In this document: positions 1-57,478 of the stretch, piece by piece
How positions within the stretch are numbered: position 1 is the stretch's first letter
How the letters are laid out: each line of letters starts with the position of its first letter
Assembly (NCBI GenBank): GCA_020137815.1
Contig: CM035362.1
Location: forward strand, 2,046,001 to 2,110,000
Direction of reading: 5' to 3'
DNA: 64,000 nt
Source of the DNA: Hormiphora californensis
Taxonomy: Eukaryota; Animalia; Ctenophora
Position numbers and translations under genes: made by a program
Notes under the pieces: model-generated
Database searches by the model: none
Told to the model about the DNA's origin: nothing
What the model saw: only the letters and a program-made list of their open reading frames with translations

Positions 1-1040
1 TTTTTTGTTTCCAGAAAAAAGTTTAAATTTTGCCATTTTTTGGGCAAAGAAAACTAGTTTTTGAGTAAATTTTGGGGGTTGTAGGGGTCTATTTAGGTTT
101 TAACCACGAAAGGAAATTAAATAAGTGGTCCATTTTGGGGGTCCTTTTGGGTCTTGACCAATTTTTAGGCATATATGTAGTTACGTCAGAACCATTTATC
201 TTGAACCCCCCCCCCCCCTGAGCGTGCAGCATTATTAAATTATAACGTTTTTGTGTTACAAAAACACAATTTTATAATTATGGCACAGAACACAATGAAT
301 ATATTCCAATAAATCACTCCAAAATACTGGTCCTTGTCTCTTTTTGGAACAAGAATGTCATTACAAACGCCACACTCGAAACCCCACCAATACCTCCAAT
401 AAGGTACGGATAGTTGTCCAGACTCAGTAATAGTGCCGCTACCGCTGTTCCGATACTAAACAACCGACCTGTACTCAGCAGGTAGCCTTGTAACATTGCT
501 CGTTGATCGGTGGGGTAGACCTCGTTGGAATAAAGTTTGAAAATTGTAAAGCTGCACGACTTCACAAACTTAAGCAGGACAATATTGATCACCAATTTGA
601 TACTCCCTCCAATGCAGATGAGTAGCGCAAAAAGGAGCGCTGATAGTGCTCCAACAATCGTCCTGATCGACAGAATCCTTGATATATACAAATTCACAGC
701 CAGCATTATCCCTGCACCGGCAATATCTCCTGTCATACCTAGGGCCAACATCGAGAGAGACTTGTCACTGTAGGTATGGCAGTTAGCGGTGTGGTTGGTA
801 GACCCTAGCTCACTGTCACAATAGCCTTCATTATACATTCTAGGGCCACCAAACATCAGTAATGACCAAGTTAGGGACTGTGAGATGCTGACGAACATGA
901 AAGCTAAGGTATGCCGTTGGAAGGTCGTATCCCTGTAGGGGAGTTGTAGAAGTGAGATCTGGGTGGGGTCACCGACGTTGTGGTTCACCAACTCTCCCTC
1001 CAGAGGAGCTGTCTTATTCAAACGCCATATGTTGGCTATA

Positions 1041-1666
1041 TAGTACATAACTCCCTCCCGCGCGGGCATCTATTCAATAGACGCACTGCAGAGCAGTGCG
1101 TCTATTGAGCTGTAATGCACGGGTCCCGAAGGGACCCGTGCGTTACAGCCCTGTAAATCCCGAGCGTCAGCGAGGGGTTTACAGGTATATCTGCATGTAA
1201 GGGAGGGAGTTGTGTTCTATAGACCCCGCTGGCGGGCACCTAGAAGCAAAACAAGCACAAATTAGGTGGTTGACACCGAGAGAGCTCACACAAAACGGGT
1301 CAAACAGTTAGAAATGAAGCTACAGAGTGCCTCTCTACATTCCTACACACTCGTAACAATCGTTGTAACAGTTTCAAAGCGTGGAATGCAGAGAGAGATT
1401 ACAGTTAATTGTGGGTCATGAGCAACAGTTGCAACAGACTGGCGGGCGCCAAATCTAGACAGAGAGCGTTGTAGGTTGTACACACACTCCCTCTTGAGTT
1501 ACCAAGTCATTTTATCGTGTTTCCAGTGATTCTTTGTGATCTTTACACAAATCTGTCAGAGGGCGTGCGTCTATCGAGACACAAACTCACGGCAGTGCAC
1601 GGCCCAATAGACCAGTGCAAATTGTTTGAGCGCGCCGTGCGTCTATTTGAGCCGGCGGGGTCTATA
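1041..1666. mobile_element. Composite palindromic non-autonomous insertion: two inverted-repeat modules sharing a CTATAG junction
   Basis: CTATA repeated at 1036-1040 and 1662-1666. Module 1 (~1036-1222) runs ctata..aactccctccc to gggagggagtt..ctatag; module 2 (~1217-1667) runs ctatagaccccgc to gcggggtctatag. Internal hairpins are present. Confidence 0.8.
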
Positions 1667-2250
1667 GTAGTTTTAGCGGAGTCCAATCTGTCACATGCGA
1701 TATCATAAAAGGCTGATTCCCGTTGGGTCAGGGTAGCCAGGGCTCCGAGAAATCCGGGCACGGAGAGAATGACTAAGACGACCCTCCAGCCGGAAGATTC
1801 AAGGAGAGCTCTGGCGGTAAGGGCGGCAGTTAGCGCACCAATTCCGTAAGAAATGGACTGGGCAGTAAACACATAGGGTCGGGTCCAAACGGGCGAATAC
1901 TCAACTGAGTAAATAGTTGCTGCCGATGTTGCTATTTCTAAGAACAGTACTGTGATTCCACGGAATACCAGAAACTGAACAAAACTTGCTGCCATTATGT
2001 TGTAGAGCCGTCCAAATCGAGTGATGAGATGACCCCCAGCGACCCCGCCAGATATTGCTGAGAGAATAATTGTGAAGGGTATGATGGCCACTTGAAGTTG
2101 GGAAAGGGACCACTCACACTTCAGTTTGGGTATTATGGTACCTAACACTGTATTCTCTGCTTCTTTAGTAAACTGTGAGATTAGGGCACAGAATATGGGT
2201 ATCACGGTTCCGGGTCCTACTCCAGCGTGGTTTAGTGCTTCCTGGACGGT

Positions 2251-2340
2251 ATATGTTGGTTTGTCTGTGCTATCTGTTGGTTTGTCTGTGCTATCTGTTG
2301 GTTTGTCTGTGGTGTCTGTTGGTTTGTCTGTGTTGTTGTC
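2251..2340 (-). repeat. 21-bp coding tandem repeat (TDKPTDS/T x~4) in the MFS N-terminus
   Basis: tgttggtttgtctgtgctatc repeated; translation visible in ORF 1543..2442. Confidence 0.85.
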
Positions 2341-2853
2341 AGTGCTGCCATAGTCCTCCACCGAGCTGGTTCCCTTTACCGGGTCCTGGTTTGACATCTT
2401 CTTGAGTCGCCTGGCACACCGTGTTCTGTGATATATGAACAATTCAACTATCTTCGAGTTTATAATTACACATTTCTATTAATGGATAAGTTTGAAAGGA
2501 AATAAACTCAAATTTATTTGATAGCAAGTATCTAGACAAACAAAGCAGAATTATATGAAGCAAACAGCTAGCACAATAACATGATAATATGCAATAAATG
2601 CAAATGTATTGTACGATAAGATGGTTGGGGCCTCTGGAGACTGTGATCGAATGTGTAATCAAGTGAGATGAGGTAGTTTAGTTGAAGTTTTTATGTCCTG
2701 GATAGCCTTAATAATTAATGCTGTTTTGAAATATCTCGAGTTATAGGAGCTAGTTGCCTATGCTAGACTCTGTTTCGTGCGCCCTAAATATAAAGGAGGG
2801 TTAGAAGTTATGTTCTAACTTAGCTTTAGAGCATAACAAACATATTTGTGAAC

Positions 2854-3012
2854 TAAAATTGATACCCTTCCCCTCTCTAGAAACTACAAGCCCCCCTTTC
2901 CCTCTTACATGTCTGTGAACTAAAATGGATACCCTTCCTCTCTAGAACCATTAAAATTGATACCCTTCCTCTCTAGAAACACTAAAATGGATACCCTTCC
3001 TCTCTAGAAACA
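2854..3012 (+). repeat. Tandem copies (~4) of a 3' splice-acceptor unit
   Basis: aaaat(t/g)gatacccttcctctctagaa repeated; the last AG (3006-3007) precedes the first visible fusogen exon. Confidence 0.75.
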
Positions 3013-6000
3013 CCTGAAGGAGAACGTGGTGTATAATATCGATCTGGACACGGGAACTACTGCTGATGAAATGGGTACATATATAACTCAATTAGTTACT
3101 GCACTTCCAATTGTATAACTAACTCATAACTAATTAAAATGATAGTATTCAACTAATTGCTACTGATATAATCCAGTGTCTAATTAGTGCTAATTACTGA
3201 TATCCAGTATATCTAATTAGTGCTAATTACTGATATCCAGTATCTAATTAGTGCTAATTACTGATATCCAGTGTCTAATTAGTGCTAATTACTGATATCC
3301 AGTATCTAATTATTGCTAATTACTGATATCCAGTATCTAATTAGTGCTAACTACTGATATCCAGTATCTAATTAGTGCTAATTACTGATATCCAGTATCT
3401 AATTAGTGCTAATTACTGATATCCAGTATATCTAATTAGTGCTAATTACTGATATCCAGTATCTAATTATTGCTAATTACTGATATCCAGTATTAAATAC
3501 CTCCTCAGTGACACTAAACATCGCTACGTCAAGTACGGCTAGTCTCCTCCCTGCTGGGTGGTACTTTGGGTCTATCTCGGGGAGTGAGTTACGGACCAAC
3601 GTGAAAATTAATGGGTGAGTTTAACATTGCGCTGTTTTTGTGTCAACAAAACTGACAGATTATATGCCACAACTTTTGTAATAGTAGCTTAGTGGTATAG
3701 CTGTCAGTTTCAATTTTAAACTAAGTTGATTGTTGAGTCATGTCAAACTACCGTGTGCGGCAAAAAAAATCCCCCCCCCCTAGACCACCATAGTTGCCGA
3801 TGTGGTGGAGAGCTGTAACTTGGCAGGGTTGCTCCACTATGTCTATCTTGATCCTGACAGAAAAATCAGAGCTCTAGCTCAAAATTCATTTTCATGAACG
3901 GAATGAACATTGTCATTCATTCCAGGAAAAAATATTTTCCGGTCCAAAATTTAACTAATTATGTTTGGCTATCGATTAGCTTTCCAATGTGACCAAGATC
4001 AGCTAAATTGGACAACCACAAGAGACACAGTGTCATGTTTCTTAAAGTTAGTCAGGTCATGTGATCTTCACTGAATCGTTGATCGTGTTCAGTATTACGA
4101 ATTGGTCTAAGTGGTAGAGAATCACGTATCACATCTGCTAATGAGGGATGACGATGCTGATTGGTCATCAGATCTGTAGCTCTTTGATAAATGTCCTCTT
4201 TCCTCGAATCACATCACCCTGTATTGGTACACATACCCAATTAGCGGCCATGATACGAGATTCCTTTGCCCATTGGCCCGATTAGCAATCCCGGAAACTC
4301 AACGATTCGGTGAAGATCACATGACCTGACTAACTTAAAGCAACATGACACTGTGTCTCTTGTGGTTGTCCAATTTAGCTGATCTTGGTCACATTGGAAA
4401 GCAAATCGATAGCCAAACATAATTAGTTAAATTTTGGACCGGAAAATATTTTTTCCTGGAATGAATGACAATGTTCATTCCGTTCATGAAAATGAATTTT
4501 GAGCTAGAGCTCTGATTTTTCTGTCAGGATCAAGATAGACATAGTGGAGCAACCCTGCCAAGTTACAGCTCTCCACCACATCGGCAACTATGGTGGTCTA
4601 GGGGGGGATTTTTTTTGCCGCACACGGTATGTCAAAAGTTAAACTCCCTCCCAGTCTCAATGAGTGGAATATGAACAAGTTGGGATGGTACAAGGTGCAG
4701 GATGGGTATGATACCATTAGGGAGAGTACAGTGAGGAGAGGCCTTTGTAGCATCCACTGAGAACTGTGGAGAAAACAAACTGAAAACAAGTGAGTTATAT
4801 AGCAGCTGTATATTCTGGGTACCTACTCCAAAGATTTCTTGACTATATCGGGATCCTGAGCTCCGAATTTCGTTAAGCTATGAATATAATTCCAACCCAG
4901 ATTTCGCGGCAGCCTACTACAATAGATTCCCTGAGGAAGCAGAACACGTCAGTACCTTCCTGTACAGCAAGGTGAGTACATGATGGTCCTCTGTCAGAGC
5001 ATTGGCCTGACAGATATTCCTAGGGCAAGAAAGAGTAAGAAAGGACCGGCTTGGGAACAATCTGCACGCATGAGAATTGAGAGGGTATCAAACGAAACTT
5101 TGTGTTTGGATTATGCTAATTTTAATTCTAATTCTTCCTTCACAGGTTGGTCATGTTGTTCGAAATGACAGTGCCAGACAGGTGATAGCCTTCCACAGGA
5201 GTTCACCCCGACTTGAAATCAAACTAACGTTTAGAAAGGATAACAAGGTAACTACCAGCATGATAAGGTAGAATTAATGATTGGGTACCTGTAAAAAGAC
5301 AACAAGGTACGAGATCGATCGGTGCAACCTAAAACTGCAACTGGCCCCACCACATTTCTCAGGAGTACAAACTGTAGCCACAATACATGTCATATGTTAT
5401 GAGTGACAGAAGCTACCACAAATACCACAAGAACTAATCGTCCCCCTAGCCCCTAATCTTCCCTTCCCCAGGTTTCGATGATCTATGACAAGTCTGAGAT
5501 GGCTGATTTCACTGGGCTTATCTTCCTTGACAAGTTTTCTAACAGGTAGTAGAGGCCTAATATAATCCACATCAATTTAGTCATTATTTTATTCTCGTAA
5601 TGAGCTGACAATTAATTAATTAACATTAGTTAATTAATATCATCCCCCGCTAGGTATCTGAACATCACGGTCATGCAAGCGGCTGGAAGTATTGTTGGGA
5701 ATATCAAGGTAAGCTGAAGCTGATGTCGCTGTGTGGCATTATTTCTTATCCCTACAGCTCATCTTTTATCAGATCTTCTTCTTTCAATCCTTCTTTCAAT
5801 CCTTCTGACCAAATACCAATCTATCCCTTTCCCCTTTCCCCCACATATATGATATTGCTGACCTAAATGTTATTAATAGTTGTTGGGGGTTTGGAAAACT
5901 TTTGGGCCCAAACAAACACATCAACAGCAAAGCACAATAAACCCACGCTGACCGTTCACCGTGTAGCCCACTTTTGCAAACTACAATCGCTGCAAAGAGA

Positions 6001-7514
6001 GTCGATATATTCCGCAAATTAAAAACCGGACCAAGTATATTAAGTGAGAGAGTTCAAGTTCAACGGCCGCTGTAAGTAAAGCTGCTGAAACAACACAATT
6101 GATTTGATAAGAGTGGTTGCCATGGGGGTGAACCCCTCGTCCAGGAACCGACCGAATCAGGAAATACTGGTCCCTGATTGGCTGATAACCAGTCACGTGA
6201 CCTAAATAATGAGTTCTGATTGGTTGTTTACGTGTTTCGGTCGGTTCCTGCCCTCGTCCATCGCTGAGAGAGAGCTGCTGTGCGTACTAAAAATTGGGGG
6301 TACCAGGGTAGGGTGTCACTAATCCCCGTTCCCCCTTCTCACGCACCAGTTCCAGGGATACGAGAGAGATTCGTTCTACATCTATGTAAAGTCCAAGAAA
6401 CCAACCAACCACAACGCCATCGTCCGAATTAGCTCTGCCTGCGAGTAAGTTGATGAATTGAATTGAATTGAATTGTTGTCTTTCAAGTGGTGCATATAAG
6501 GGCTCCTATAAAATTGAGAGTCCTCCTATTAGGATCTTTCCGTGTAATAGTAACAATTGCAGTTGAAACATGTTCTCTTATCAGGCAGGTGGGAGATTTG
6601 AAGAAAGCTGAGACGTGCCTCAAACCCCTGGGAACTGGTGAAGTGGTCGTGAAACCAAAATGCTACTGGGTGAGTCATGTTCTGTTCAAACGCTGTCGCA
6701 GCATTGGCCTGACCCTATTCTCATTTTGCGAGAACCATGTGGTCAGAGCATTGGCCTGACAGTTCAAACGTGGTGAGAGATTTGAATTGTTCAGTGTCAG
6801 CTGCGACCCAAGTAAGACAGATGATCGAGTAGTACTATGTAGTACCCACTACCCTGCCTAAAACTCCCTCTTTCCCTATTTCTCTTGTCGAGTTGTTTAC
6901 TTTGTTTTCAGTTAGGTAATCTACACATTCCCCATCTTTCTTGTCGAGTAATTGCAGTTGTTTACAACACTTAATGTTTTCAGTTAATCTGTACGGAGAA
7001 GAAGAACGAAAAGTTTATAGCTCCTGAAGATGTCGTTGAATACACCCCCGAGGAACAAGATGATATCCTTTCTCTAGCAACGTGGACAAAATACATGAAC
7101 CCCGCAAAATGGTTTGACGGGAAAACTGGAATTGTGGAGTGGGTTGTCATCATAATCTTCGTGATAGTCCTCTCCGCAGTCATAGCAGTTCTCCTGAAAA
7201 TCCTCAAGATGTTCGGTTGTCTCTTTAAGTGCATGAAATGCCTGGGTGTCTGCCGGAAGAGAAGCAAAGATAGATATGAAAAGGTGAGATATCGTGCGGG
7301 GAGTTTTGGGCGAAGTCAGGTGAAAAGTGTGGTTCCTGTGACCCGGAGTCGGTCTACAGCGGGCCCCGGGGATGATAGTTTACCGGATGATTTGCATTAT
7401 ATTGTTGTAAATGACAATACTAATCACTATGAGACACTACCAAATAGTAAGAAAAATGTGCGCTTTGATAGCGGGCAGTTCTTGAAAGGAGGTCGCGATG
7501 GGGTGTTGATTTAG
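3008..7514 (+). CDS. EFF-1/AFF-1 family (FF/fusexin) cell-cell fusogen, 3' part. Exons 3008-3074, 3509-3614, 4655-4789, 4901-4971, 5146-5247, 5472-5545, 5654-5708, 6350-6444, 6585-6669, 6984-7514
   Basis: All introns are GT-AG and phase-compatible except one extra base near 4735. The spliced protein has colinear FF motifs: GWYF…ELR, LNEWNMNKLGWYK, NC, SARQVIAFH, YDKSEMADFTGLIFLDKFSNRYLNITVMQAAGSIVG, WTKYMNPAKWFDG, then a TM helix and cytoplasmic tail. These match C. elegans EFF-1/AFF-1 motifs recalled from memory (LGWYR; DFSGSIIVDSKSNR.FNLTV..ASG; LNP..W..G). N-terminal half not in the window. Confidence 0.85.
3150..3492. repeat. 31-bp intronic minisatellite, ~10-11 copies
   Basis: Unit taattactgatatccagtatctaattagtgc, no spacers. 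Confidence 0.9.
3751..4627. mobile_element. Foldback MITE with ~320-bp TIRs and TA TSD (Tc1/mariner-type)
   Basis: TA|CCGTGTGCGGC…GCCGCACACGG|TA; arms ~3751-4075 and ~4306-4627 are near-identical inverted copies. Confidence 0.9.
6142..6250. mobile_element. 109-bp hAT-like MITE
   Basis: Ends CAGGAACCGACCGAA…TTCGGTCGGTTCCTG; 8-bp TSD ccctcgtc. Confidence 0.9.
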
Positions 7515-8681
7515 TTGTTTTACAGTGAATTATCATGGGGAATCTTGCCCATATTTGGTATGGGCTGTAAAATACCCTAAAAAGGCATGATTGTTTAGTG
7601 TTTAGGATATTTCAAAGACAATAAATAGTTAGTAGGTCACCAGATAATGTGAGATTATCCAAACACCCCTTTCTTCCCGATACCGCCGCACTATTACTCA
7701 TAGCTTGATTATCCCTGCCTCTTTTCTTGCCCAGCACCTAGTTTACATTATCCCGTCTTTTCTTGTTACTACAGTAGTCCCTCCGCTCTCCGTGATCTCT
7801 CCATCTGCAATGTCTACGGCGGCCGTGTAAATTTATCATCAGCTGGTTTGACAGGGCTGTGTTTTCTGGCCCCGCCCTTCTAATGCACCGTGTCTACCAT
7901 TGTCTACTGTTAGAACCGTGCAAATGTATCACCTGATTTGATGGACATGGCCACTGTACAGCTTAAATAAATTACGTCACTATATATTGAAAGACACAAA
8001 TCCGTCTGTCTGTCATACATACACCCAGAGCTATCGTCCAATTAATGAAAATGAGAGGAAAGAGAAAATGAGAGCAGCGAGAGAGAGGGAGAGAGAGAGA
8101 AAGATAGAGAGAGGAACGTGCCTGATAATTGAGTCAAATCAAAGAGAGAGGAGGGCATACACACACTGGTGAATCTATCTTTAGAAAATTTTGAGAGTTT
8201 GTCTACTAGCTGGACGGAAACGAGAAATAAAATGAGGTAGATAGAAGTGGGTGGAGAGAGGTGTGACAATATATAATTCCAGATGCAAATCAACTGGAAC
8301 TGGACCCAGTTAGTAATGATCTGGAACTGAATCTCCCCTATAATTGTGGGCCCAGAATTGGATTTCTCCTATTGTTTGGATCCCAGCTGTGTGAGCATGC
8401 TCCCCTTCCCACCCCCACCCCCAACCACACACCCCCCCCCCTTTCAGAGCAACTTCTTCAATTGGGGTGCAGGTGATAACATGACCATGGTCGATGTGAG
8501 CAGTAACTTCAAACACAAGGACATGAAAGATAATAGTTCATCAAGTTCATCATCTAGTTCTTCAAAATCTTCCATTTGTAAAGAGATGAAGACATCAATT
8601 GATCGGGTCTAATGTGGATGGTGGTTATTAGATATAGAGACGGTTTCAGTTCTATATTAACATGGTAAACATGCTGCAGTT

Positions 8682-8790
8682 CAGGAACCGACCGAATCAG
8701 GAAATACTGGTCGCTGATTGGCTGATAACCAGTCACGTGACCTAAATAACTAGTTCTGATTGGTTGTTTACTTGTTTCGGTCGGTTCCTG
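8682..8790. mobile_element. 109-bp hAT-like MITE, second copy
   Basis: Near-identical to 6142-6250; 8-bp TSD ctgcagtt. Confidence 0.9.
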
Positions 8791-10140
8791 CTGCAGTTCT
8801 AGGTGATTTTAAAATGGCTTGAAGTTTGTGCATCCCCCATTATCATGATGATGTCTCTCCATTTGGTTTTACTGCTGCCCCACAACGCCTGTTCGTTTGA
8901 TGCTGCTTCTTCTGTTCCATTGTGTTCACAACTGAACACATGTTTGGTGTTGCATGGATTCACCCAAAACGTCTACCCCAGTTATCTCGTGAGAGTACAA
9001 CATCAATAATTTACATTCCTTGTGTGCATGGTGTGTGAGATAACATCTGTATCTGACCCAGCGTGTCCTATTTGAGAGCTGTGCTCGTCTCTTCAATGGT
9101 TTCCATGGCGACTGTTGGAATTGAAGCATGGTTTAGTTTGTCGCACAAGGTACACGTTATATCGGCGTATCCGGTTTGTGAATATGAAATTTAACTAGTC
9201 TCCAATTTGCATGATTTCCTTTTACAGCTAACAGCCTATTGACTTTCTTCAGAGCTGTGCATGAATTCATCCAATTTTGTTGAATTGCAGTTTCAGCTGT
9301 TTTTACGCGTTTTTGTTCAGTGAAATGAAGTGTGCTGAGAAAAGTGGAAAGTTTTTACTTTTTTATTTAGCAAAAGATGTATGATTTACATTTTATTTTT
9401 CGAGAAAAACTGTAAAATTTAGGAATTATGAAGGAGAAACTTATATACACTCTGTCAAAAAAGTTAATATAAGATAACAGGTAGCTATAAAAACTTGTTA
9501 TTTATGCTATTTTGCATATGTATAAATGTATGTAATATTGTGTTTAAATATGAAGTATGTATTGTACAGTTTTTCTATCGATTTACTGTAAATTTACAAA
9601 AAGAAAGGTGCCAGTTTAAATCTGTTAATAGACTGAATATGATGGACAGAGTACAGACAATCTTTACTATTTGTATTATTTATTCACTTTTTACCTCATA
9701 GTTAATGATAATAGAAATTAACTATAACGCTGTAACATAACTAAGCAATTTATTCTTGATTTTATTTCCACCAAAAACGGATGAGACTTGTTTTATTTCC
9801 GAGCAATTATCAGCTCTACTGTCACAGTACTCACATTGAAAACAAGATGTAAATTACCATTGATTGAATCTCTATAGCCTGCGTTTAACTATCAACTTCA
9901 AGTTTTCTGTTTTGGGTTATTTTGGCAAACGCAAAGTGTCGCACAAACATTTCTCACATGTTTGTAGCGCGCGGTGACAATTTAGCAAACAACCGCAGAA
10001 TGCGCACGCGCAAATCATGTTGCGCGCCGCGTTGCTCAACCGGAATGGCGCCGCGCCATTTAATTCCGTGATTTCCAACAAATAAATGAAAATCCGAGTT
10101 TTCGGTTTTCGTAAACTTTTTAAAACTTTTTCCTAGTTTG

Positions 10141-11778
10141 TGGTGTGTGGGTAATAAGTTTACAAGTTTACAACAAGTTTACAATAAAAGTTTTAGTGTA
10201 CACAACAGGCCTTCCCTTAGTGGGTCCACTTAAATAAATTAAACACGTATCACCTCTCAGCCACTCTCAGACATTAACAGCACATTGAGGGGAAATATCA
10301 TTGGGAAGTGATGGATAGCCTCTGACAGGGGGACGGTCATAAAAGCCTGTCAAGTAATTGCCCAGGGATGATTTGAATTGACCTAAGCTTCCGCAAGAGT
10401 TAACGGCCGCTGGCAACCTGTTCCACAGGTGAGCAGCTCTCGGTCCGAAAGAAGAATGGTACTGATTCGCTCTCCAGGTCTCAGCCCGATGTGGAAACAT
10501 TGGCGGGACTAACCTCATACCCAGCCTTGCACTGTGTTGGAACACAAGATTTGCAGAATTCGGAACAAACCCATGGATCGTCTTCCACACATGTATCAAC
10601 ATGTAACGTTGTCTCCTACGTTGAAGAGACATCAGGTTGAGAACTTTTAATCTCTCCCAATAGTCGAGATTCTGCATTCCATCAAGTCTTCTGGTAAAAC
10701 ATCTTTGGACGTTCTCAATTGACTTGATGTCCCCAGACTTTGACGGGTCCCAGACCAGACAACAATACTCCAAAATTGGTCTGACCAGTGATTTGAAGAG
10801 TTGCAACATTACCTCTGGTGAACGATCTCGAAAAACACTGAAAATCCACCCAGATAGCAGAGAGGCTCTCCTAACAATGATGGCAATGTGCTTCGACCAA
10901 GAACCATCCGAGGACATCTGGACACCCAAGTCACGGACATCAGCTTCAGGAAACAGTTGTACTCCAGATTTTGTGGTATACGAACATATGTCAACTGAAA
11001 AAGGGAATTCCTTGTAGATTGCCGACTTGTTCAGTCTGTAACTCAGGAGTTGAAATTTCTGATCATGTAGCACCATATTGTTTATCTTGGCCCATTCTGT
11101 AACCCTCAAAAGATCAGTTTGTAAACCCTCCTGATCAACGATATCTGTTATGGCTTTCATTAACTTGGTATCATCCACAAAAGTGAGACACATACTGCCA
11201 TCCAGTACAGACTCCAGGTCCAGTATATAAATAAGGAAGAGGAGAGGGCCCAGGACACTACCCTGCGCCACCCCGCTGAGCACCTCCACCCATGGTGACC
11301 TAACCCCATCCACCATCACACACTGCTGCCTGCCCAGGATCCACGCACTGATCCACTGATGAAGTTTTCCTCCAATCCCGTACCTTTTCAACTTAGCTAG
11401 CAACACATTGATATCCACCGAATCAAAGGCTTTAGAAAAATCTAAATAGAGTACATCAACTTCTCTATCCCCACAGAGTTCGGTTAGGATGTAGTCGACA
11501 TGAGATAACAGTTGGGACATAGTGCTACGTCCCTTTCGAAAACCGTGTTGCGTTTCACTCTGCAACTGCATCTCGTCCAAATAATCAGCTATTCTCTTTC
11601 TGACTAGCCGCTCAAACACCTTCGATAAGTGACTGGTGATCGACACAGGGCGATAATTTCCCGTCGTAGACTTCGACCCTTTCTTAAAGATTGGTGTTAT
11701 GAACTGCTGCTTTAAACAATTTGGAACAGCCCCATCTGCAAATGACTTGTTCCATCCATCTGCAAATGACTTGTTCCA
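10141..11778 (-). mobile_element. 5'-truncated CR1-group LINE (RT domain plus 3' UTR)
   Basis: ORF 10267..11928 has PIFKKG, NYRPVS, QHGF, YLDFSKAFD, QGSVLGP, FVDD, RPILEY. (gtaaactt)n-like tail near 10150-10185. Putative TSD ttttcctagtttg at ~10128-10140 and ~12252-12264. Confidence 0.9.
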
Positions 11779-12240
11779 TAATAATAAGAAACCATAATAA
11801 TGTTCAAGAGCCTCCAAGAGCGTACCCCAACCAAGAGAGCCCAAAATCAAGAGCACACCACAATCAAGAGAGACCAAAATCAAGAGCACACCACAATCAA
11901 GAGAGACCAAATCAAGAGCGCACCACAATCAAGAGAGACCAAATCAAGAGCGCACCACAATCAAGAGAGACCAAATCAAGAGCGTACCACATCCAAGAGA
12001 GCTCCCCATCCAGAAGATACCAGATGTGGTGCGCTCTTGAATTTGGTCTCTCTTGATTGTGGTGCGCTCTTGATTTGGTCTCTCTTGATTGTGGTGCGCT
12101 CTTGATTTGGTCTCTCTTGATTGTGGTGTGCTCTTGATTTTGGTCTCTCTTGATTGTGGTACGCTCTTGATTTTGGTCTCTCTTGGATGGGGTGCGCTCT
12201 TGGAGGCTCTTGAACTTTATTATGGTTCCTTATTTATTAT
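11779..12240. mobile_element. Foldback element with arms built of 29-30-bp tandem repeats
   Basis: The left arm of (caccacaatcaagagagaccaaatcaagagcg)n is mirrored by a reverse-complement right arm around a centre near 12010. Confidence 0.85.
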
Positions 12241-21324: not shown

Positions 21325-22459
21325 ATGGGAATTAAACAGCTCTCCAAAGTGATAGCGGACATTTCGCCGGGTGCCATCAAGCAAGGGGAGATGAAAAACT
21401 ACTTCGGTCGGACCATCGCAGTTGATGCCAGTATGTGTCTCTACCAGTTTCTAATTGCAGTCCGGAACGAAGGGTCCTTCCAGATGACCGATGCGAATGG
21501 TGAGATCACCAGTCATATCATTGGTGTTTTCTACCGGACCATCAGAATGATGGATAACGGTTTGAAGCCCGTGTACGTATTTCGATGGAAAGCCCCCTAC
21601 TATGAAGGGTGGTGAGTTGGCCAAGAGGACGGAGCGGAGGGAGGAGGCAGCGAAGGAACTAGCAAAAGCAGAGGCTGCTCAGGATCAGGAAAATATTGAT
21701 AAGTTTAGTAAACGGTTGGTAAGAGTTGAGAAACACCACGCAGAGGAAGTGAAACAGCTGCTAAAATTAATGGGTGTGCCGTATGTAAATGCTCCCTGTG
21801 AGGCAGAGGCTCAGTGTGCCGAGCTCGTAAAAAAGGGAAAGTGCTTTGGTGTTGGAACTGAGGATATGGATGCACTGACCTTCGGAGCAAACAAACTAGT
21901 TCGACATTTGACGTTCAGTGAGTCTCGCAAGATCCCGGTCCAGGAGTTCGATTTAGCGAAGGTACTTTCTGAATCCGGCCTTTCGATGGACCAGTTTATC
22001 GACTTGTGTATTCTACTGGGCTGTGATTACTGTGACACGATCAAGGGAATCGGTCCTAAGAAAGCCCTGACTCTGATAACAGAACACGGGAGTATCGAGG
22101 AGATCTTGAAGAAGATCGATCAAACCAAATACCCTCCACCGGCGGAGTGGCCCTTTGACATGGCGAGGAAGCTGTTTCAGAACCCTGATGTTGAGGATGG
22201 GGCAGGCTTTGATTTGAAGTTCACTGACCCCGACGAGGAAGGACTCGTTAAATTCCTGTGCGAGGAAAAGAATTTCTCGGAAGAGCGAGTGAGGGGTGGA
22301 ATTAAGAAAATTTTGGCCAGCAAGAGCAAAGCAAAGCAGGGAAGATTGGACAGTTTTTTCAAGGTTAAGCCTGCAGAGCCTGTGAAAGCATCGCCAAGCT
22401 CGAAACGAAAATCGGACGGTAAATCCAAAGGAACGGCGTCCAAACGGGGCAAAAAATGA
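21325..22459 (+). CDS. FEN1: Flap endonuclease 1, intronless; one apparent +1 frameshift near 21580
   Basis: [10 protein letters not shown]…[18 protein letters not shown]…KPVYVF(DG)…[10 protein letters not shown]…[10 protein letters not shown]…LLGCDY…GIGPKKA…PIP box QGRLDSFF. Confidence 0.96.
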
Positions 22460-22782: not shown

Positions 22783-34446
<11,664 letters not shown>

Positions 34447-34690
34447 TGAGTGGTGATGATAACGATATAAGACTTTCTTTCTGAATATGTATAGAGTCTA
34501 TATTATAGATCCGATATAGAGTCAATATTTAATTGAAAAAGCGTCTCAACTTGGCATGATTGGTAATCTTTATCTAGTTCATCTTGCAGCAGCTGAGTTT
34601 TCTTGTATGATGATTCCCGATAAATCGTTATACCCCCTCTCCCCTGTATTATAACTTATAATATCCTCCTCCACTAATTATATAGCCATC

Positions 34691-49294
<14,604 letters not shown>

Positions 49295-53273: not shown

Positions 53274-54560
53274 ATGTCGGGTGTGGCTACCCATGATGTT
53301 ATTATGTGCAAGACAGATATGGAGGGTAAGTTGCTCGCCACGAGCTACTCTGATAGTTGTAAAGGTGCCAGCATAGCACAGAGCATCAAGGATGATACGG
53401 CGGAACCTCCGAGGGGGACTACCAAACCGATTTTATGGACAGTTATCAAACAACTGTATGCTTTGTTACCGGACACCAGACGCATATCTACCCACTCATC
53501 TGAATCTGTATCTTCATTCACGGCAGGAGATTTACAGGAGACGTTGGAAAAGCTGAAAGAGGATCTTCTAGGTTCACTTCCGGATCTAGTAGCTCCCAAG
53601 GTTAGCAAGATTCTTGCAGCTGATCGAGGAACCATCCCTGACAGTGTGACTCCTCCTGACTCAAATACTGGAGCAGTGGCTCCTGTGACTCCGATAAAGA
53701 GGTACCTGACAATCAAGGACAAAGGGGAAGATGGACCAATGTGTGAGAAGAAATGGACCGAAGTTGTACGAACAAAAGTGGAAACAGCGTTGAAGAATAT
53801 TCCGGTGTTAGATCTTTCTGTCAACAAGAGACGGACTAATCTGATGTTTGAGACGGATGATCAGATGGAACAAGCGAAGGAGGTTCTCTCTCCATTCCTT
53901 GATGTGTCTTCTGCAGTGGAGAAAGAGAAGAAGAAGGATCCCCGGATAATGGTCAATGACCTTGATCAGGACCTGTTAGAGAAGGATAGTCTTCTCTCCG
54001 AGATTGTCAGTGATAAGAATGAGTCAGTGAAGAGGCTTGTTGAGGAGGGTCATGTTGTGAAGGTGGTTCATATTAACAAGACAGGGAGATATGCTGTGAT
54101 TCAGGTAACCCCAGAGGTGAGGAAGGTGATTGCTGACCGGAAGGACAAGCTCTTTTTGAAGCTCCGACAGCACTTTGTTAGGAACAGGTTTTATGTCACT
54201 CAGTGTTTCCACTGTCAGCGCTTTGGTCATGTAGCAGGGTCCATCTACTGTCCAAACAAGGATAAATCTGCGGTTTGTGCCTTCTGTACAGGGGATCATG
54301 ATACTAGGAGTTGCCAAGCCAAGAAGGATAACGTAGTGAGCAGAATGAAATGTGTCAACTGTGATCATGGAGGAAGCAAAGAGGACAAGCGTCATGCTAA
54401 GAGTCACCCAGCCTCAAGCAGTATGTGTCCATTCTACATCAATGCTAAAGCTAGACTCATGGAGAGCACAAGTGGCGTGACTAAGGAGGAAAAAAACCTG
54501 TATCAGACGAGGGCATGGGAGGACCTGAGAGGAAAACGACTTGGAAGATTGGCTCACTAA
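53274..54560 (+). CDS. LINE ORF1 (gag-like, three Zn knuckles)
   Basis: CFHCQRFGH…C, CAFCTGDH…C, CVNC…H…C. Confidence 0.88.
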   Translation: MSGVATHDVIMCKTDMEGKLLATSYSDSCKGASIAQSIKDDTAEPPRGTTKPILWTVIKQLYALLPDTRRISTHSSESVSSFTAGDLQETLEKLKEDLLGSLPDLVAPKVSKILAADRGTIPDSVTPPDSNTGAVAPVTPIKRYLTIKDKGEDGPMCEKKWTEVVRTKVETALKNIPVLDLSVNKRRTNLMFETDDQMEQAKEVLSPFLDVSSAVEKEKKKDPRIMVNDLDQDLLEKDSLLSEIVSDKNESVKRLVEEGHVVKVVHINKTGRYAVIQVTPEVRKVIADRKDKLFLKLRQHFVRNRFYVTQCFHCQRFGHVAGSIYCPNKDKSAVCAFCTGDHDTRSCQAKKDNVVSRMKCVNCDHGGSKEDKRHAKSHPASSSMCPFYINAKARLMESTSGVTKEEKNLYQTRAWEDLRGKRLGRLAH

Positions 54561-57478
54561 ATGTTCACTCAATTATGAATAAAACGTCAGGTGTAATTAC
54601 ACACTTGGAGGAAAAAGGATGCGACATCTGCTTGGTACAGGAGACTTATCTGAAGCAAAGTGACACTGCAAAACTTCAGGAGATCAGAGATTATGGTTGG
54701 AACATCTTCTCCTCTCCTAGGGCCGAACGCTCTGGAGGAGGAATTGGGATCTTGTACAGGGATGGCGTAAAGATCAAGTACACACCAGTAAAGACTAAGT
54801 TTAAATCATTCCAGGTCCAGGAAGCCCTTATCGGTATTGGGCAGGATCTTACAAGGTTGTGCAATATCTATAGGCCTCCTTACACGGGCAAGGCAAGATA
54901 TACGGAAGCACAGTTCCTGGATGAGTTTAATGACTATCTGTCCGAGCTAGTCTGCAAAACTGGATATCCCGTTCTGATGGGTGATTTTAACTTCCAAGTC
55001 CACGACACCCAGAACTTCTATGCCAAGAAATTACTTGCACTGCTTGACTCTCTGGGGTTTGATCAATTAGTTCCAATGCAACCCACCCATGTTCGAGGAG
55101 GTACTCTTGATCTCTTGCTGTGCCAAAAAGACAGAGTTTCCAAAGTTCAATCAGTGACAATATTTCCAGAAGGGACAACTTCGGATCACTTTATGGTTTT
55201 AGCTGATCTGTTAATCGAGACTACTAGAAGTGAATACAAAACCCGTGAACAGATTGACACATACAGGGATTTTAGGGCAGTTGACCTGGAACTGTTCAGG
55301 CGAGCTTTTGGAGATGTGGATTGGAGTGCGGTGATGGAGTCTAAATCTGCTGAGGATGCTTTGGCTGCTTATTCGAGGATAATCGAGGATCTTGTGGAGA
55401 GGACTGTCCCACTGAAGAGGAAAAAGAAGAAAGGGGCGAAGATAAAGCCATGGAGAGATAATCCAGAGGTGCGTGAGGTTCTTCGACTACGAAGGAAAGC
55501 CGAGAGGGCTTGGGAAAGCAACAGAACTAGTATAACGAAGAAGCAATTCAATGACCTCAAGAGACAGTTTGGACGTGTGGATAAAGAGGCGAGAATGAAG
55601 TATGTGAAAGATGATCTAGAGGAATCAAGGGATGACCCAAAAGCACTTCAGAGGAAGCTCAGCCGCCTTCTTGGAAACAATGAAACCTTTCTACCAGAAA
55701 CAAGTGATAAGAGGAAGCTAGCGGATGATTTTGGTGACTTCTTTGTTGGAAAAGTTGAGAGGATCCGAACTACTGTGTTAGAGGAGCAGAACCAGAGGAC
55801 AACGAGGAATGTTTTACATCAGACCCCTGTCTGTTGTTTTGAAAAGTTTGAGGAAGTTTCCCCAGAGAAACTAATCAGGATTATCAAAGATATGCCTGAC
55901 AAGACCTGTGATCTTGATCTCATACCTACGTGGTTGGTGAAAGGTTGCATTGATGAGCTAGCCACCGCTTTGTGCAAGTTTGTAAACCTATCACTCCAGT
56001 GTTCCAGCGTTCCTGATATTCTTCAACAAGCATTGGTTTTTCCTACGATTAAGAACCCCCATGGGGACAAAGACTCCTTATCCAACTACCGTCCAGTCTC
56101 CAACCTACCGTTTATCTCCAAATTACTGGAAAAGGTTGTCCTAGAGCAGCTGAACTCATACCTCAATGAGAATGAGTTACTGAACAAACATCAATCGGGT
56201 TATCGGGTGGGACATAGTTGTGAAACACTCCTGATGGGTATGTTTGATGATTTACTACGAGACCTTGATGAAGGAAAGGTCACTGGCCTCTTTCTTTTAG
56301 ACATGAGTGCTGCCTTTGATACAGTGGACCATGGGAAGCTGCTAGAGACTCTGGAAGGACGTTTTGGAGTGAAAGGCTCTGTGCTGGATTGGTTTGCCAG
56401 CTATCTACAGTGTAGGAATTACCGAGTTAATGTGGAGGGGGAGCTTTCGAGGATCATCACGCTGATATGTGGAGTTCCACAGGGGTCACTGCTTGGGCCG
56501 GTATTGTTCTTGTTGTATGTCGAGGAGCTCCAGGACTTGGTTAGACCCTTTGGTCTGAGGATTAAGCTATACGCCGATGACTCTCAACTGTACATCAGTC
56601 TTGTGCCTACTGACAAGGATGGTTGGAATGCAGCGAAGGAGAGGATTGAGGAGTGTCTATCAAGTGTGAAACTGTGGATGAGTGATCACTGGCTTAAGTG
56701 TAATGAGGCAAAGACAGAGTTTTTACTGTTAGGTAAGAGCAGTGCTCTGGATAAGATGGTCTTCCAGCCCACGGTAAGCTTTGGAGGAGTGGAAATCAGC
56801 CCTATGGAATTTACTGGATCTGCAGGGAAGACCCTGGGTGTATTCCTTGACAGTAACATTTCGATGGAAAGGCAGATCAACAGTGTTAAGAAGCAATGTG
56901 GAATGCTTCTCAAGAATTTGTGGCAGGTTAACCGATGTTTGGATAAACCGACCAAGATGCTTCTGGTGAAGCAACTCATCGTTTCGAGACTTGACTACTG
57001 TAATGTCCTTTATTCTGGCTTACCAAAGAAGCTCCTGGATAGCTTGCAGCGAGTTCTGAACTCATGTGTCAGATTTGTGTATGGCCTGTATGGTCACCAG
57101 GACAGTTACATGCCCTACTTGAGTGAAATGCACGTCCTCCCGATTGAACAGCGAGTTAAGTTCAAGGTTTGCTTAATGGCGTACAAGATTGTACATGGCT
57201 TGGCTCCAGTGTACCTGCAGGAACAGGTCCCTGTGGATGATGGACTACATGTGATCCGGACTACCAGAGGAAACGCTCAGCCTGATGGCCTCAAGCTGAG
57301 GTATCCTAAGCTATCCAGTGTGAATGCAACTTCTAAGTTGAGGAGGAGACGTCCGTCGGTTTATCTGCCTGAAATCTGGAATAAGCTTTCCATTGATCTG
57401 AGAGCAATTGACTCTGTGGACTCTTTCAAGTCTAAGCTAAAGACTAGTCTCTTCATTGAGGCTTTCGGTGAATCCTGA
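54515..57478 (+). CDS. LINE ORF2 (APE endonuclease plus RT), L2-group-like
   Basis: QET, IYRPP, GDFN, SDH; LLDMSAAFD, GVPQGSLLGP, YADD, SRLDYCN, H.LP..QR..FK. Confidence 0.93.
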   Translation: MGGPERKTTWKIGSLNVHSIMNKTSGVITHLEEKGCDICLVQETYLKQSDTAKLQEIRDYGWNIFSSPRAERSGGGIGILYRDGVKIKYTPVKTKFKSFQVQEALIGIGQDLTRLCNIYRPPYTGKARYTEAQFLDEFNDYLSELVCKTGYPVLMGDFNFQVHDTQNFYAKKLLALLDSLGFDQLVPMQPTHVRGGTLDLLLCQKDRVSKVQSVTIFPEGTTSDHFMVLADLLIETTRSEYKTREQIDTYRDFRAVDLELFRRAFGDVDWSAVMESKSAEDALAAYSRIIEDLVERTVPLKRKKKKGAKIKPWRDNPEVREVLRLRRKAERAWESNRTSITKKQFNDLKRQFGRVDKEARMKYVKDDLEESRDDPKALQRKLSRLLGNNETFLPETSDKRKLADDFGDFFVGKVERIRTTVLEEQNQRTTRNVLHQTPVCCFEKFEEVSPEKLIRIIKDMPDKTCDLDLIPTWLVKGCIDELATALCKFVNLSLQCSSVPDILQQALVFPTIKNPHGDKDSLSNYRPVSNLPFISKLLEKVVLEQLNSYLNENELLNKHQSGYRVGHSCETLLMGMFDDLLRDLDEGKVTGLFLLDMSAAFDTVDHGKLLETLEGRFGVKGSVLDWFASYLQCRNYRVNVEGELSRIITLICGVPQGSLLGPVLFLLYVEELQDLVRPFGLRIKLYADDSQLYISLVPTDKDGWNAAKERIEECLSSVKLWMSDHWLKCNEAKTEFLLLGKSSALDKMVFQPTVSFGGVEISPMEFTGSAGKTLGVFLDSNISMERQINSVKKQCGMLLKNLWQVNRCLDKPTKMLLVKQLIVSRLDYCNVLYSGLPKKLLDSLQRVLNSCVRFVYGLYGHQDSYMPYLSEMHVLPIEQRVKFKVCLMAYKIVHGLAPVYLQEQVPVDDGLHVIRTTRGNAQPDGLKLRYPKLSSVNATSKLRRRRPSVYLPEIWNKLSIDLRAIDSVDSFKSKLKTSLFIEAFGES

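Follow-up and report, generated by a model that had tools for sequence, protein, structure and literature searches.

Does the locus at positions 3008-7514 of the DNA stretch shown above encode a cell-cell fusogen, and is the gene whole? An earlier note on this stretch, which comprises 64,000 nucleotides (nt) of contig CM035362.1 (assembly GCA_020137815.1) and is called here the window, had placed at this position a hidden gene of the EFF-1/AFF-1 (FF) family. Our results indicate that the locus almost certainly belongs to this family. With a confidence somewhat better than even, we read it as a spliced host gene, likely of a ctenophore, of which the 3' two-thirds are present; its broken frame is likely due to a mistake in the assembly, and its product is likely to fuse cells in the way of EFF-1.

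Family assignment of the locus

Nine exon pieces of the gene were scanned against Pfam, where the EFF-AFF family (PF14884) has a gathering cut-off of 25 bits. Two of the nine match this family, each as its sole match and in collinear order: exon 3 covers positions 213-238 (E 0.0036), and positions 323-346 are matched by exon 6 (E 0.013). The Pfam check proposed in the earlier note held as far as the order of the matches goes, and the relatives pass it, but neither exon reaches the cut-off. These relatives were retrieved with the first 106 residues of exon 10 as query: among 1.84 billion representatives the search returned 23 proteins, nine of which reach the EFF-AFF gathering score (50-205 bits), while most of the others are short fragments of stem and transmembrane (TM) segment. 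One, the repeat protein P0143, was dropped as spurious. Because scoring with exon 10 would have been circular, we limited a profile to the ectodomain columns of the relatives. Exons 1-9 score 164.6 bits against it, whereas 200 shuffles and a reversed sequence gave at most 4.2. All five ectodomain cysteines present align with cysteines in four of four relatives, and the 11-12 N-terminal cysteines lie outside the window.

A six-frame scan of the whole window with the relatives' profile returned exons 10, 3, 2, 6, 5 and 7 as its top six fragments (108.2, 15.8, 15.4, 14.1, 10.0 and 9.0 bits; best scores in 10 shuffled windows, 3.2-6.6), the score of exon 10 being circular, since this exon had fetched the relatives. 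The same scan found no second FF locus in the window. When compared with the 177,635 sequences of the PDB, the profile matches four, all of them EFF-1A (best E 3.8e-55); exon 3 or exon 6 alone did not find EFF-1 in the PDB sequence search. A word-based homologue search confirmed for exon 10 none of 549 candidates and found for P0128 only itself among 5058. In metagenome contigs, none of 187 matches to the exon 10 pattern was confirmed, and one of 92 matches to the relatives' alignment was. The latter is a short contig (L001:567-900) with an FF stem-TM exon after a splice acceptor.

The fold points the same way. Structure models were made for the relatives P0128 and P0126, with pLDDT values (predicted local distance difference test) of 69.3 and 48.8, and both have the class II three-domain beta fold. 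For both models the top three Foldseek matches are EFF-1 (E ~1e-25 to 1e-23). Gc proteins come next, at 1e-15 or weaker, with Atlas virus Gc and HAP2 lower still, giving EFF-1 a lead of ten orders of magnitude over viral Gc. The P0128 model compares with EFF-1 at a TM-score of 0.67-0.72 by target length. An Atlas search with P0128 put an EFF-AFF cluster first (0.93) and a phlebovirus G2 cluster second (0.92), a ranking of low recognition value, and with exon 10 it returned only leads under 0.9. The assignment of the earlier note was thus borne out by the Pfam matches, the ectodomain score, the restriction of PDB matches to EFF-1A and the folds of the relatives; the comparison with EFF-1 and HAP2 that it called for came out in favour of EFF-1 for P0128 and P0126, the relatives on which it was run.

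Might the locus be a captured phlebovirus-like or retroelement envelope gene, of the Atlas virus Gc type, and not an FF gene at all? The class II fold is common to Gc, the phlebovirus cluster follows closely for P0128, the Atlas search with exon 10 by itself points to a C-terminal cluster of hantavirus Gc (0.83, a lead only), and P0130 matches Hanta_Gc_C below the cut-off. Yet, such an envelope would be an intronless open reading frame (ORF) in a gag-pol or polyprotein context and nearer to Gc, and here we find nine spliceosomal introns, EFF-1 as the sole sequence match among PDB entries, EFF-1 well ahead of Gc by fold, the nearest reverse-transcriptase ORFs at least 2.7 kb away and no gag-pol frame seen beside the gene. 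Viral contigs, searched with one pattern only, yielded no relatives (0 of 8 matches confirmed). Capture of an envelope is thus very improbable. That the FF family as a whole goes back to a virus at some deep date is another matter, a scenario already published (PMC9259645; all papers are cited here from excerpts). The literature on envelope-carrying elements and fusexin origins (PMC13524379, PMC9094657, PMC9259645) includes one report, PMC13524379, whose excerpts describe F-type and gB-type envelopes, not class II.

Exon structure and splicing

The FF locus is drawn as ten exons on the + strand, giving a read-through model of 439 residues (Table 1). All nine introns are GT..AG, of 108-1040 nt, and all ten exon acceptors are YAG, with pyrimidines at 7-12 of 12 positions, so that the small GT-AG exons of the earlier note stand. 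So do the stem, the one TM helix and the tail that it described, all of which are found in exon 10. The stem motif WTKYMNPAKWFDG lies at model residue 297, and the model has a single hydrophobic segment (19-residue windows starting at 306-329). This is the type I topology of the FF family: stem, one TM helix, cytoplasmic tail. The ectodomain is shorter than the ~400 residues first estimated, as we count ~305 ahead of the TM helix. The list of ORFs holds exon 10 only, and its near blindness to the gene, already remarked upon, is explained by repeats, tandem in intron 1 and a large inverted-repeat element in intron 2.

Over 162 residues, which take in the tail motif, exon 10 shares 45% identity with P0121. 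In the tail (7275-7440, +) two blocks are shared with this nearest relative; they include the sequence DLHYIVVNDN, unchanged between the two proteins, and a tyrosine motif of YxxV form. A role in trafficking would be a guess.

Contigs of two sequencing runs bear on splicing. Those called X2 come from a related organism (A), are ~80-90% identical to the window and are guessed to be RNA; X1 is a run with 95-100% matches to repeats of the window. One X2 contig joins 3073 to 3508 at GT..AG, across intron 1, and a second leads from where exon 3 ends, by way of sequence resembling exon 4, to an exon-5-like end. These contigs support the splicing of three of the nine FF introns, in a relative or paralogue. 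The spliced-read check suggested in the earlier note therefore succeeded for three junctions, in contigs that differ from the window, and the other six are not so supported. The description of the locus as a host-integrated, intron-rich gene fits the nine spliceosomal introns and the three seen joined. Separately, an X1 RNA contig lies over the inverted-repeat element of intron 2 (4332-4377), and the five differences listed for it are all A>G. They could stem from A-to-I editing of the hairpin or from another copy of the repeat.

Table 1. Positions of the features of the window, counted from its first letter
Feature	Position	Strand	Remarks
Tandem repeat	2840-3005		copies of the exon 1 acceptor
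Exon 1	3008-3074	+	internal exon, without start codon context or signal peptide
31-bp tandem repeat	3171-3498		intron 1
Exon 2	3509-3614	+	ectodomain; 15.4 bits against the relatives' profile; covered by X2 contigs at ~90%
Inverted-repeat element, like a miniature inverted-repeat transposable element (MITE)	3749-4629		most of intron 2; 318-nt arms, 97% complementary
Exon 3	4655-4789	+	ectodomain; LGWY motif and invariant cysteine; holds the frame break; X2 uses donor 4789
Frame break	4737-4741	+	one surplus base (or two bases missing) inside exon 3
Exon 4	4901-4971	+	X2 record 12 splices exon 3 to exon 4 and on to an exon-5-like end
Exon 5	5146-5247	+	10.0 bits; loose exon-5-like end in X2
Exon 6	5472-5545	+	Pfam EFF-AFF 323-346, E 0.013; 14.1 bits
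Exon 7	5654-5708	+	9.0 bits
Exon 8	6350-6444	+	predicted domain III (aligned to EFF-1 relatives); cysteine kept in 4/4 relatives; alone 3.2 bits, chance level
Exon 9	6585-6669	+	predicted end of domain III; two cysteines kept in 4/4 relatives; alone no significant score
Exon 10	6984-7514	+	linker, membrane-proximal stem, single TM helix, cysteine-rich juxtamembrane stretch, cytoplasmic tail, stop; X2 covers 7092-7139
Reverse-transcriptase ORF, like a long interspersed nuclear element (LINE)	10267-11928	-	553 codons
Spliced kinesin gene	23100-34500	+	Pfam Kinesin
MCM gene	36648-49100	+	Pfam MCM_OB, below cut-off
Reverse-transcriptase ORF, LINE-like	41830-44541	-	903 codons
Reverse-transcriptase ORF, LINE-like	54485-57478	+	997 codons

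The frame break and the missing 5' end

The assembled sequence encodes no whole protein, because of a frameshift in exon 3 and the absence of the N-terminal third, both of which the earlier note had missed. It had taken the exons to be phase-compatible; the frame shifts within exon 3, and the literal ten-exon coding sequence, of 1321 nt, runs into a premature TGA at 4758-4760 after 92 codons. When the break is read through as X, the model aligns without gaps across it, and its score against a profile built from 11 relatives is 278.1 bits. An intron that would rescue exon 3 was looked for and rejected: the 12 open-frame GT-AG alternatives (introns of at least 30 nt) score 216-254 bits, the best, at 254.3, falling short of the read-through model. 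The five alternative acceptors examined carry G or A at -3, unlike all ten true YAG acceptors. The copy as assembled thus lacks the complete reading frame of an FF gene, a matter separate from its ancestry.

In three full-length relatives, 180-195 residues with 11-12 cysteines precede the point at which exon 1 starts. By this alignment, the FF gene is 5'-incomplete in the window, and ~190 N-terminal residues, predicted to include the signal peptide and the domain II tip, lie outside it. Within 1-3007, N-terminal FF exons were not found: the best score of the N-terminal profile is 4.5 bits, at chance level, and none of 14 candidate exons inspected by eye is FF-like. No exon with the signal peptide typical of the family was found within the window. 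One X2 contig reaches 296 nt farther 5' than 3028, which supports the existence of upstream exons, in the relative or paralogue from which it comes.

Assembly error or pseudogene?

Another gene of the same window provides a control for the frame break. The intronless FEN1 gene (21325-22459, +) has a one-base break near 21580-21584 and no other stop. Its best named match is that of Mnemiopsis leidyi (74-82%; 74% in the hit list); the top four matches are at 71-74% and all other matches listed are at 65% or less. This similar one-base break in FEN1 favours an assembly error over a pseudogene for the FF break. The FF gene has a single lesion in 1321 nt, with all splice sites and cysteines kept. 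We think it probable that the locus is intact in the animal and that the break is a residual indel of the assembly, even if the preserved features would also fit a very recent loss of the gene.

If the break were real, the locus would be a null allele of recent origin, or an FF paralogue that had lately turned into a pseudogene, possibly truncated at its 5' end and tolerated through other paralogues. The stop after 92 codons fits this view, as do the lack of a convincing intron rescue (with the true acceptor at 4900 the score drops by 38 bits, and the tested alternative acceptors have G or A at -3), the N-terminal exons not found in 1-3007 and the absence of X1 contigs from the FF exons. At least three lineages of relatives suggest redundancy, and a neighbouring MFS gene is interrupted by inverted-repeat insertions. 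But a pseudogene would have to retain its splice sites and cysteines and to show no more than a single lesion over 1321 nt, and a one-base break of this kind is also seen in FEN1, which is a conserved gene of replication. In the FF sequence downstream of the break, X2 and the window differ by 15 synonymous and 6 non-synonymous changes among 33 codons, by hand count and in a sample biased because only contig ends beside good matches are shown; this synonymous excess also speaks against a pseudogene. Upstream, the same comparison gives 4 synonymous and 4 non-synonymous changes in 10 codons of exon 2 and 0 and 5 in 7 codons of exon 1. A real break is thus possible but rather unlikely. Two 238-nt X2 contigs begin at 3510 and, if they overlap record 12 by 30 nt, span 224 spliced bases of the window. 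The ensuing difference of 14 nt between X2 and the window is not a multiple of three, and is a weak hint in which the linkage is assumed.

Several observations weigh against reading the locus as a host FF gene broken by the assembly. The gene is broken as assembled, and the signal peptide and domain II tip fall outside its model. The Pfam matches of exons 3 and 6 are both under 25 bits and were obtained with single exon pieces. The folds are those of relatives 32-34% identical to the window. X2 may represent a paralogue or another species, and X1 contigs are absent from every FF exon and hence from the break, an absence that proves nothing. Finally, the kinesin exons (by eye) and the retroelement ORFs of 903 and 997 codons are unbroken, and indel errors are therefore not dense in the window. 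As a reagent the locus will be of little use before both its break and its 5' end have been settled.

Relatives in ctenophores

Named members were found in two of the 20 clusters of FF relatives looked up, and both are ctenophores, Bolinopsis microptera (XP_063692208.1) and Pleurobrachia bachei (sb/3475108). Taken with the Mnemiopsis match of FEN1, these names point to a likely ctenophore host, other than Mnemiopsis itself. In a tree of 22 rows, 11 of them filling under half of the columns, without a nematode outgroup and leaving out P0137 (54 residues) and P0140 (83 residues), the window protein pairs with P0121 (100/99). The Bolinopsis protein, whose cluster representative scores 198 bits on EFF-AFF, belongs to a different starred clade, and a third group, weakly placed, takes in the Pleurobrachia fragment. 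Given this different clade and an identity of 33%, the Bolinopsis protein is likely a paralogue of the window gene. Ctenophores apparently have several paralogous FF lineages.

That EFF-1 has sequence relatives in ctenophores is already stated in reviews (PMC6504885, PMC4723337), so the ctenophore homologue invoked in the earlier note is indeed in print. What our analysis adds is apparently the existence of several paralogues, some with a predicted apolar tip where EFF-1 is acidic. The homologue in print is reportedly that of Pleurobrachia pileus, from a 2011 source, and Avinoam 2011 and Perez-Vargas 2014 may already list ctenophore sequences and their tip loops. In the literature searched, which covers few subscription journals, we found no paper tying a fusexin to Mnemiopsis.

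Proposed fusion mechanism, tip loop and possible tissue

An intact product of the locus would quite likely be a cell-cell fusogen. EFF-1 is monomeric while it stands on the membrane, works from both membranes and is trimeric at the end (PMC4050280, PMC5350521, PMC8784728, PMC12236693). We infer a similar mechanism here because the window encodes, by alignment, the parts that fold back: part of domains I and II, domain III, the stem and the TM helix. By analogy with EFF-1, the protein would be a type I surface glycoprotein with a class II fold, monomeric and required on both membranes. It would trimerise in trans, domain III and the stem folding back towards the domain II tip, and the two TM anchors would be drawn together, leading through hemifusion to a pore.

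Where might such a protein act? Muscle progenitors of Pleurobrachia pileus fuse, giving multinucleate muscle (PMC3502136), and the nerve net of Mnemiopsis is syncytial (PMC7617566). From what is known of ctenophore biology, the fusion of muscle progenitors would be the likeliest process and the syncytial nerve net a second candidate; the link of the FF gene to either is a hypothesis. In their excerpts, five papers on ctenophore and cnidarian neural syncytia (PMC12407032, PMC7617566, PMC10730927, PMC9816575, PMC8987731) bring in EFF-1 only as a nematode analogy and do not propose a ctenophore FF gene as the fusogen. Hence, the named candidates from Bolinopsis (XP_063692208.1) and Pleurobrachia bachei (sb/3475108) make the question of the ctenophore fusogen testable.

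The tip of domain II complicates the analogy with EFF-1, in which it is acidic (EDD), whereas it is hydrophobic in viral class II proteins (PMC4050280, PMC5350521). In P0122, P0126, P0127 and P0147 (the last from the same cluster as P0126), the loop aligned to the EDD of EFF-1 is an apolar TAFLSGSAEV, and P0128 has a similar apolar loop. The loop is identical in P0122, P0126 and P0127, though these proteins are otherwise 46-59% identical to P0126. In P0141, P0153, P0136 and P0129 the aligned loop is charged. An apolar tip in some relatives, departing from EFF-1, is to be taken as a lead and not as a result; it would bear on the evolution of one-sided and two-sided fusion.

One might thus speculate that the gene is intact and its product folds like FF proteins, but serves something other than bilateral somatic fusion: one-sided fusion via a membrane-inserting tip, or else gamete fusion, wound sealing, self-fusion, scission or adhesion. 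The apolar loops and their likeness to viral tips would be in line with this. However, the window gene's own loop lies outside the window, in both models the loop region falls below a pLDDT of 50, P0141/P0153, P0136 and P0129 have a charged loop, and Arabidopsis HAP2, with a hydrophobic loop, nevertheless mediates bilateral fusion in baby hamster kidney (BHK) cells (PMC5350521). We hold such a role to be unlikely, and keep to fusion in the manner of EFF-1. A bolder proposal, and a doubtful one, is that a ctenophore multigene FF family, in which some members have a virus-like apolar tip, would supply the missing fusogens of muscle and nerve net, possibly acting from one side, and would take a place intermediate between the class II proteins of viruses and EFF-1/AFF-1 of nematodes.

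Neighbouring features

Upstream of the FF exons lies an intronless MFS transporter gene (314-2475, -), split by two adjacent inverted-repeat insertions at ~1034-1667. If the FF gene continues upstream, the MFS gene would be nested in one of its 5' introns. A short dispersed repeat occurs at 6139-6251 and 8679-8791, with 96% identity between the copies; it is matched by many X1 contigs of very high summed depth, and by X2 at ~90%. Farther downstream, the kinesin gene is one that we take to be KIF4-like, and the MCM gene is presumably MCM5-like.

Comparison with known systems

The gene of the window resembles C. elegans EFF-1/AFF-1 (PF14884; PDB 4OJC/4OJD/4OJE/4CYL) in its collinear C-terminal ectodomain, stem, single TM helix and tail, and its relatives have the class II fold. 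It differs in its host, likely a ctenophore, in its broken frame and missing N-terminus as assembled, and in the predicted apolar tip of some relatives. HAP2/GCS1, phlebovirus Gc and Atlas virus Gc have the class II fold in common with the relatives (Foldseek E 1e-12 to 3e-15), but their fold scores are far weaker than those of EFF-1 and none is matched by sequence in the PDB at E up to 1. Closer to home, the Bolinopsis microptera protein (LOC134824313, annotated as 'uncharacterized') belongs to the FF family and shares 33% identity with the window model across 348 residues; unlike the latter, it is full length (820 residues) and has a long tail, and it sits in a different starred clade. The published ctenophore homologue is of the same family and phylum as the window gene and, in the excerpts, is known by sequence only (PMC6504885, PMC4723337). 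To this, the locus described here adds an exon structure, spliced contigs and apparent paralogous lineages.

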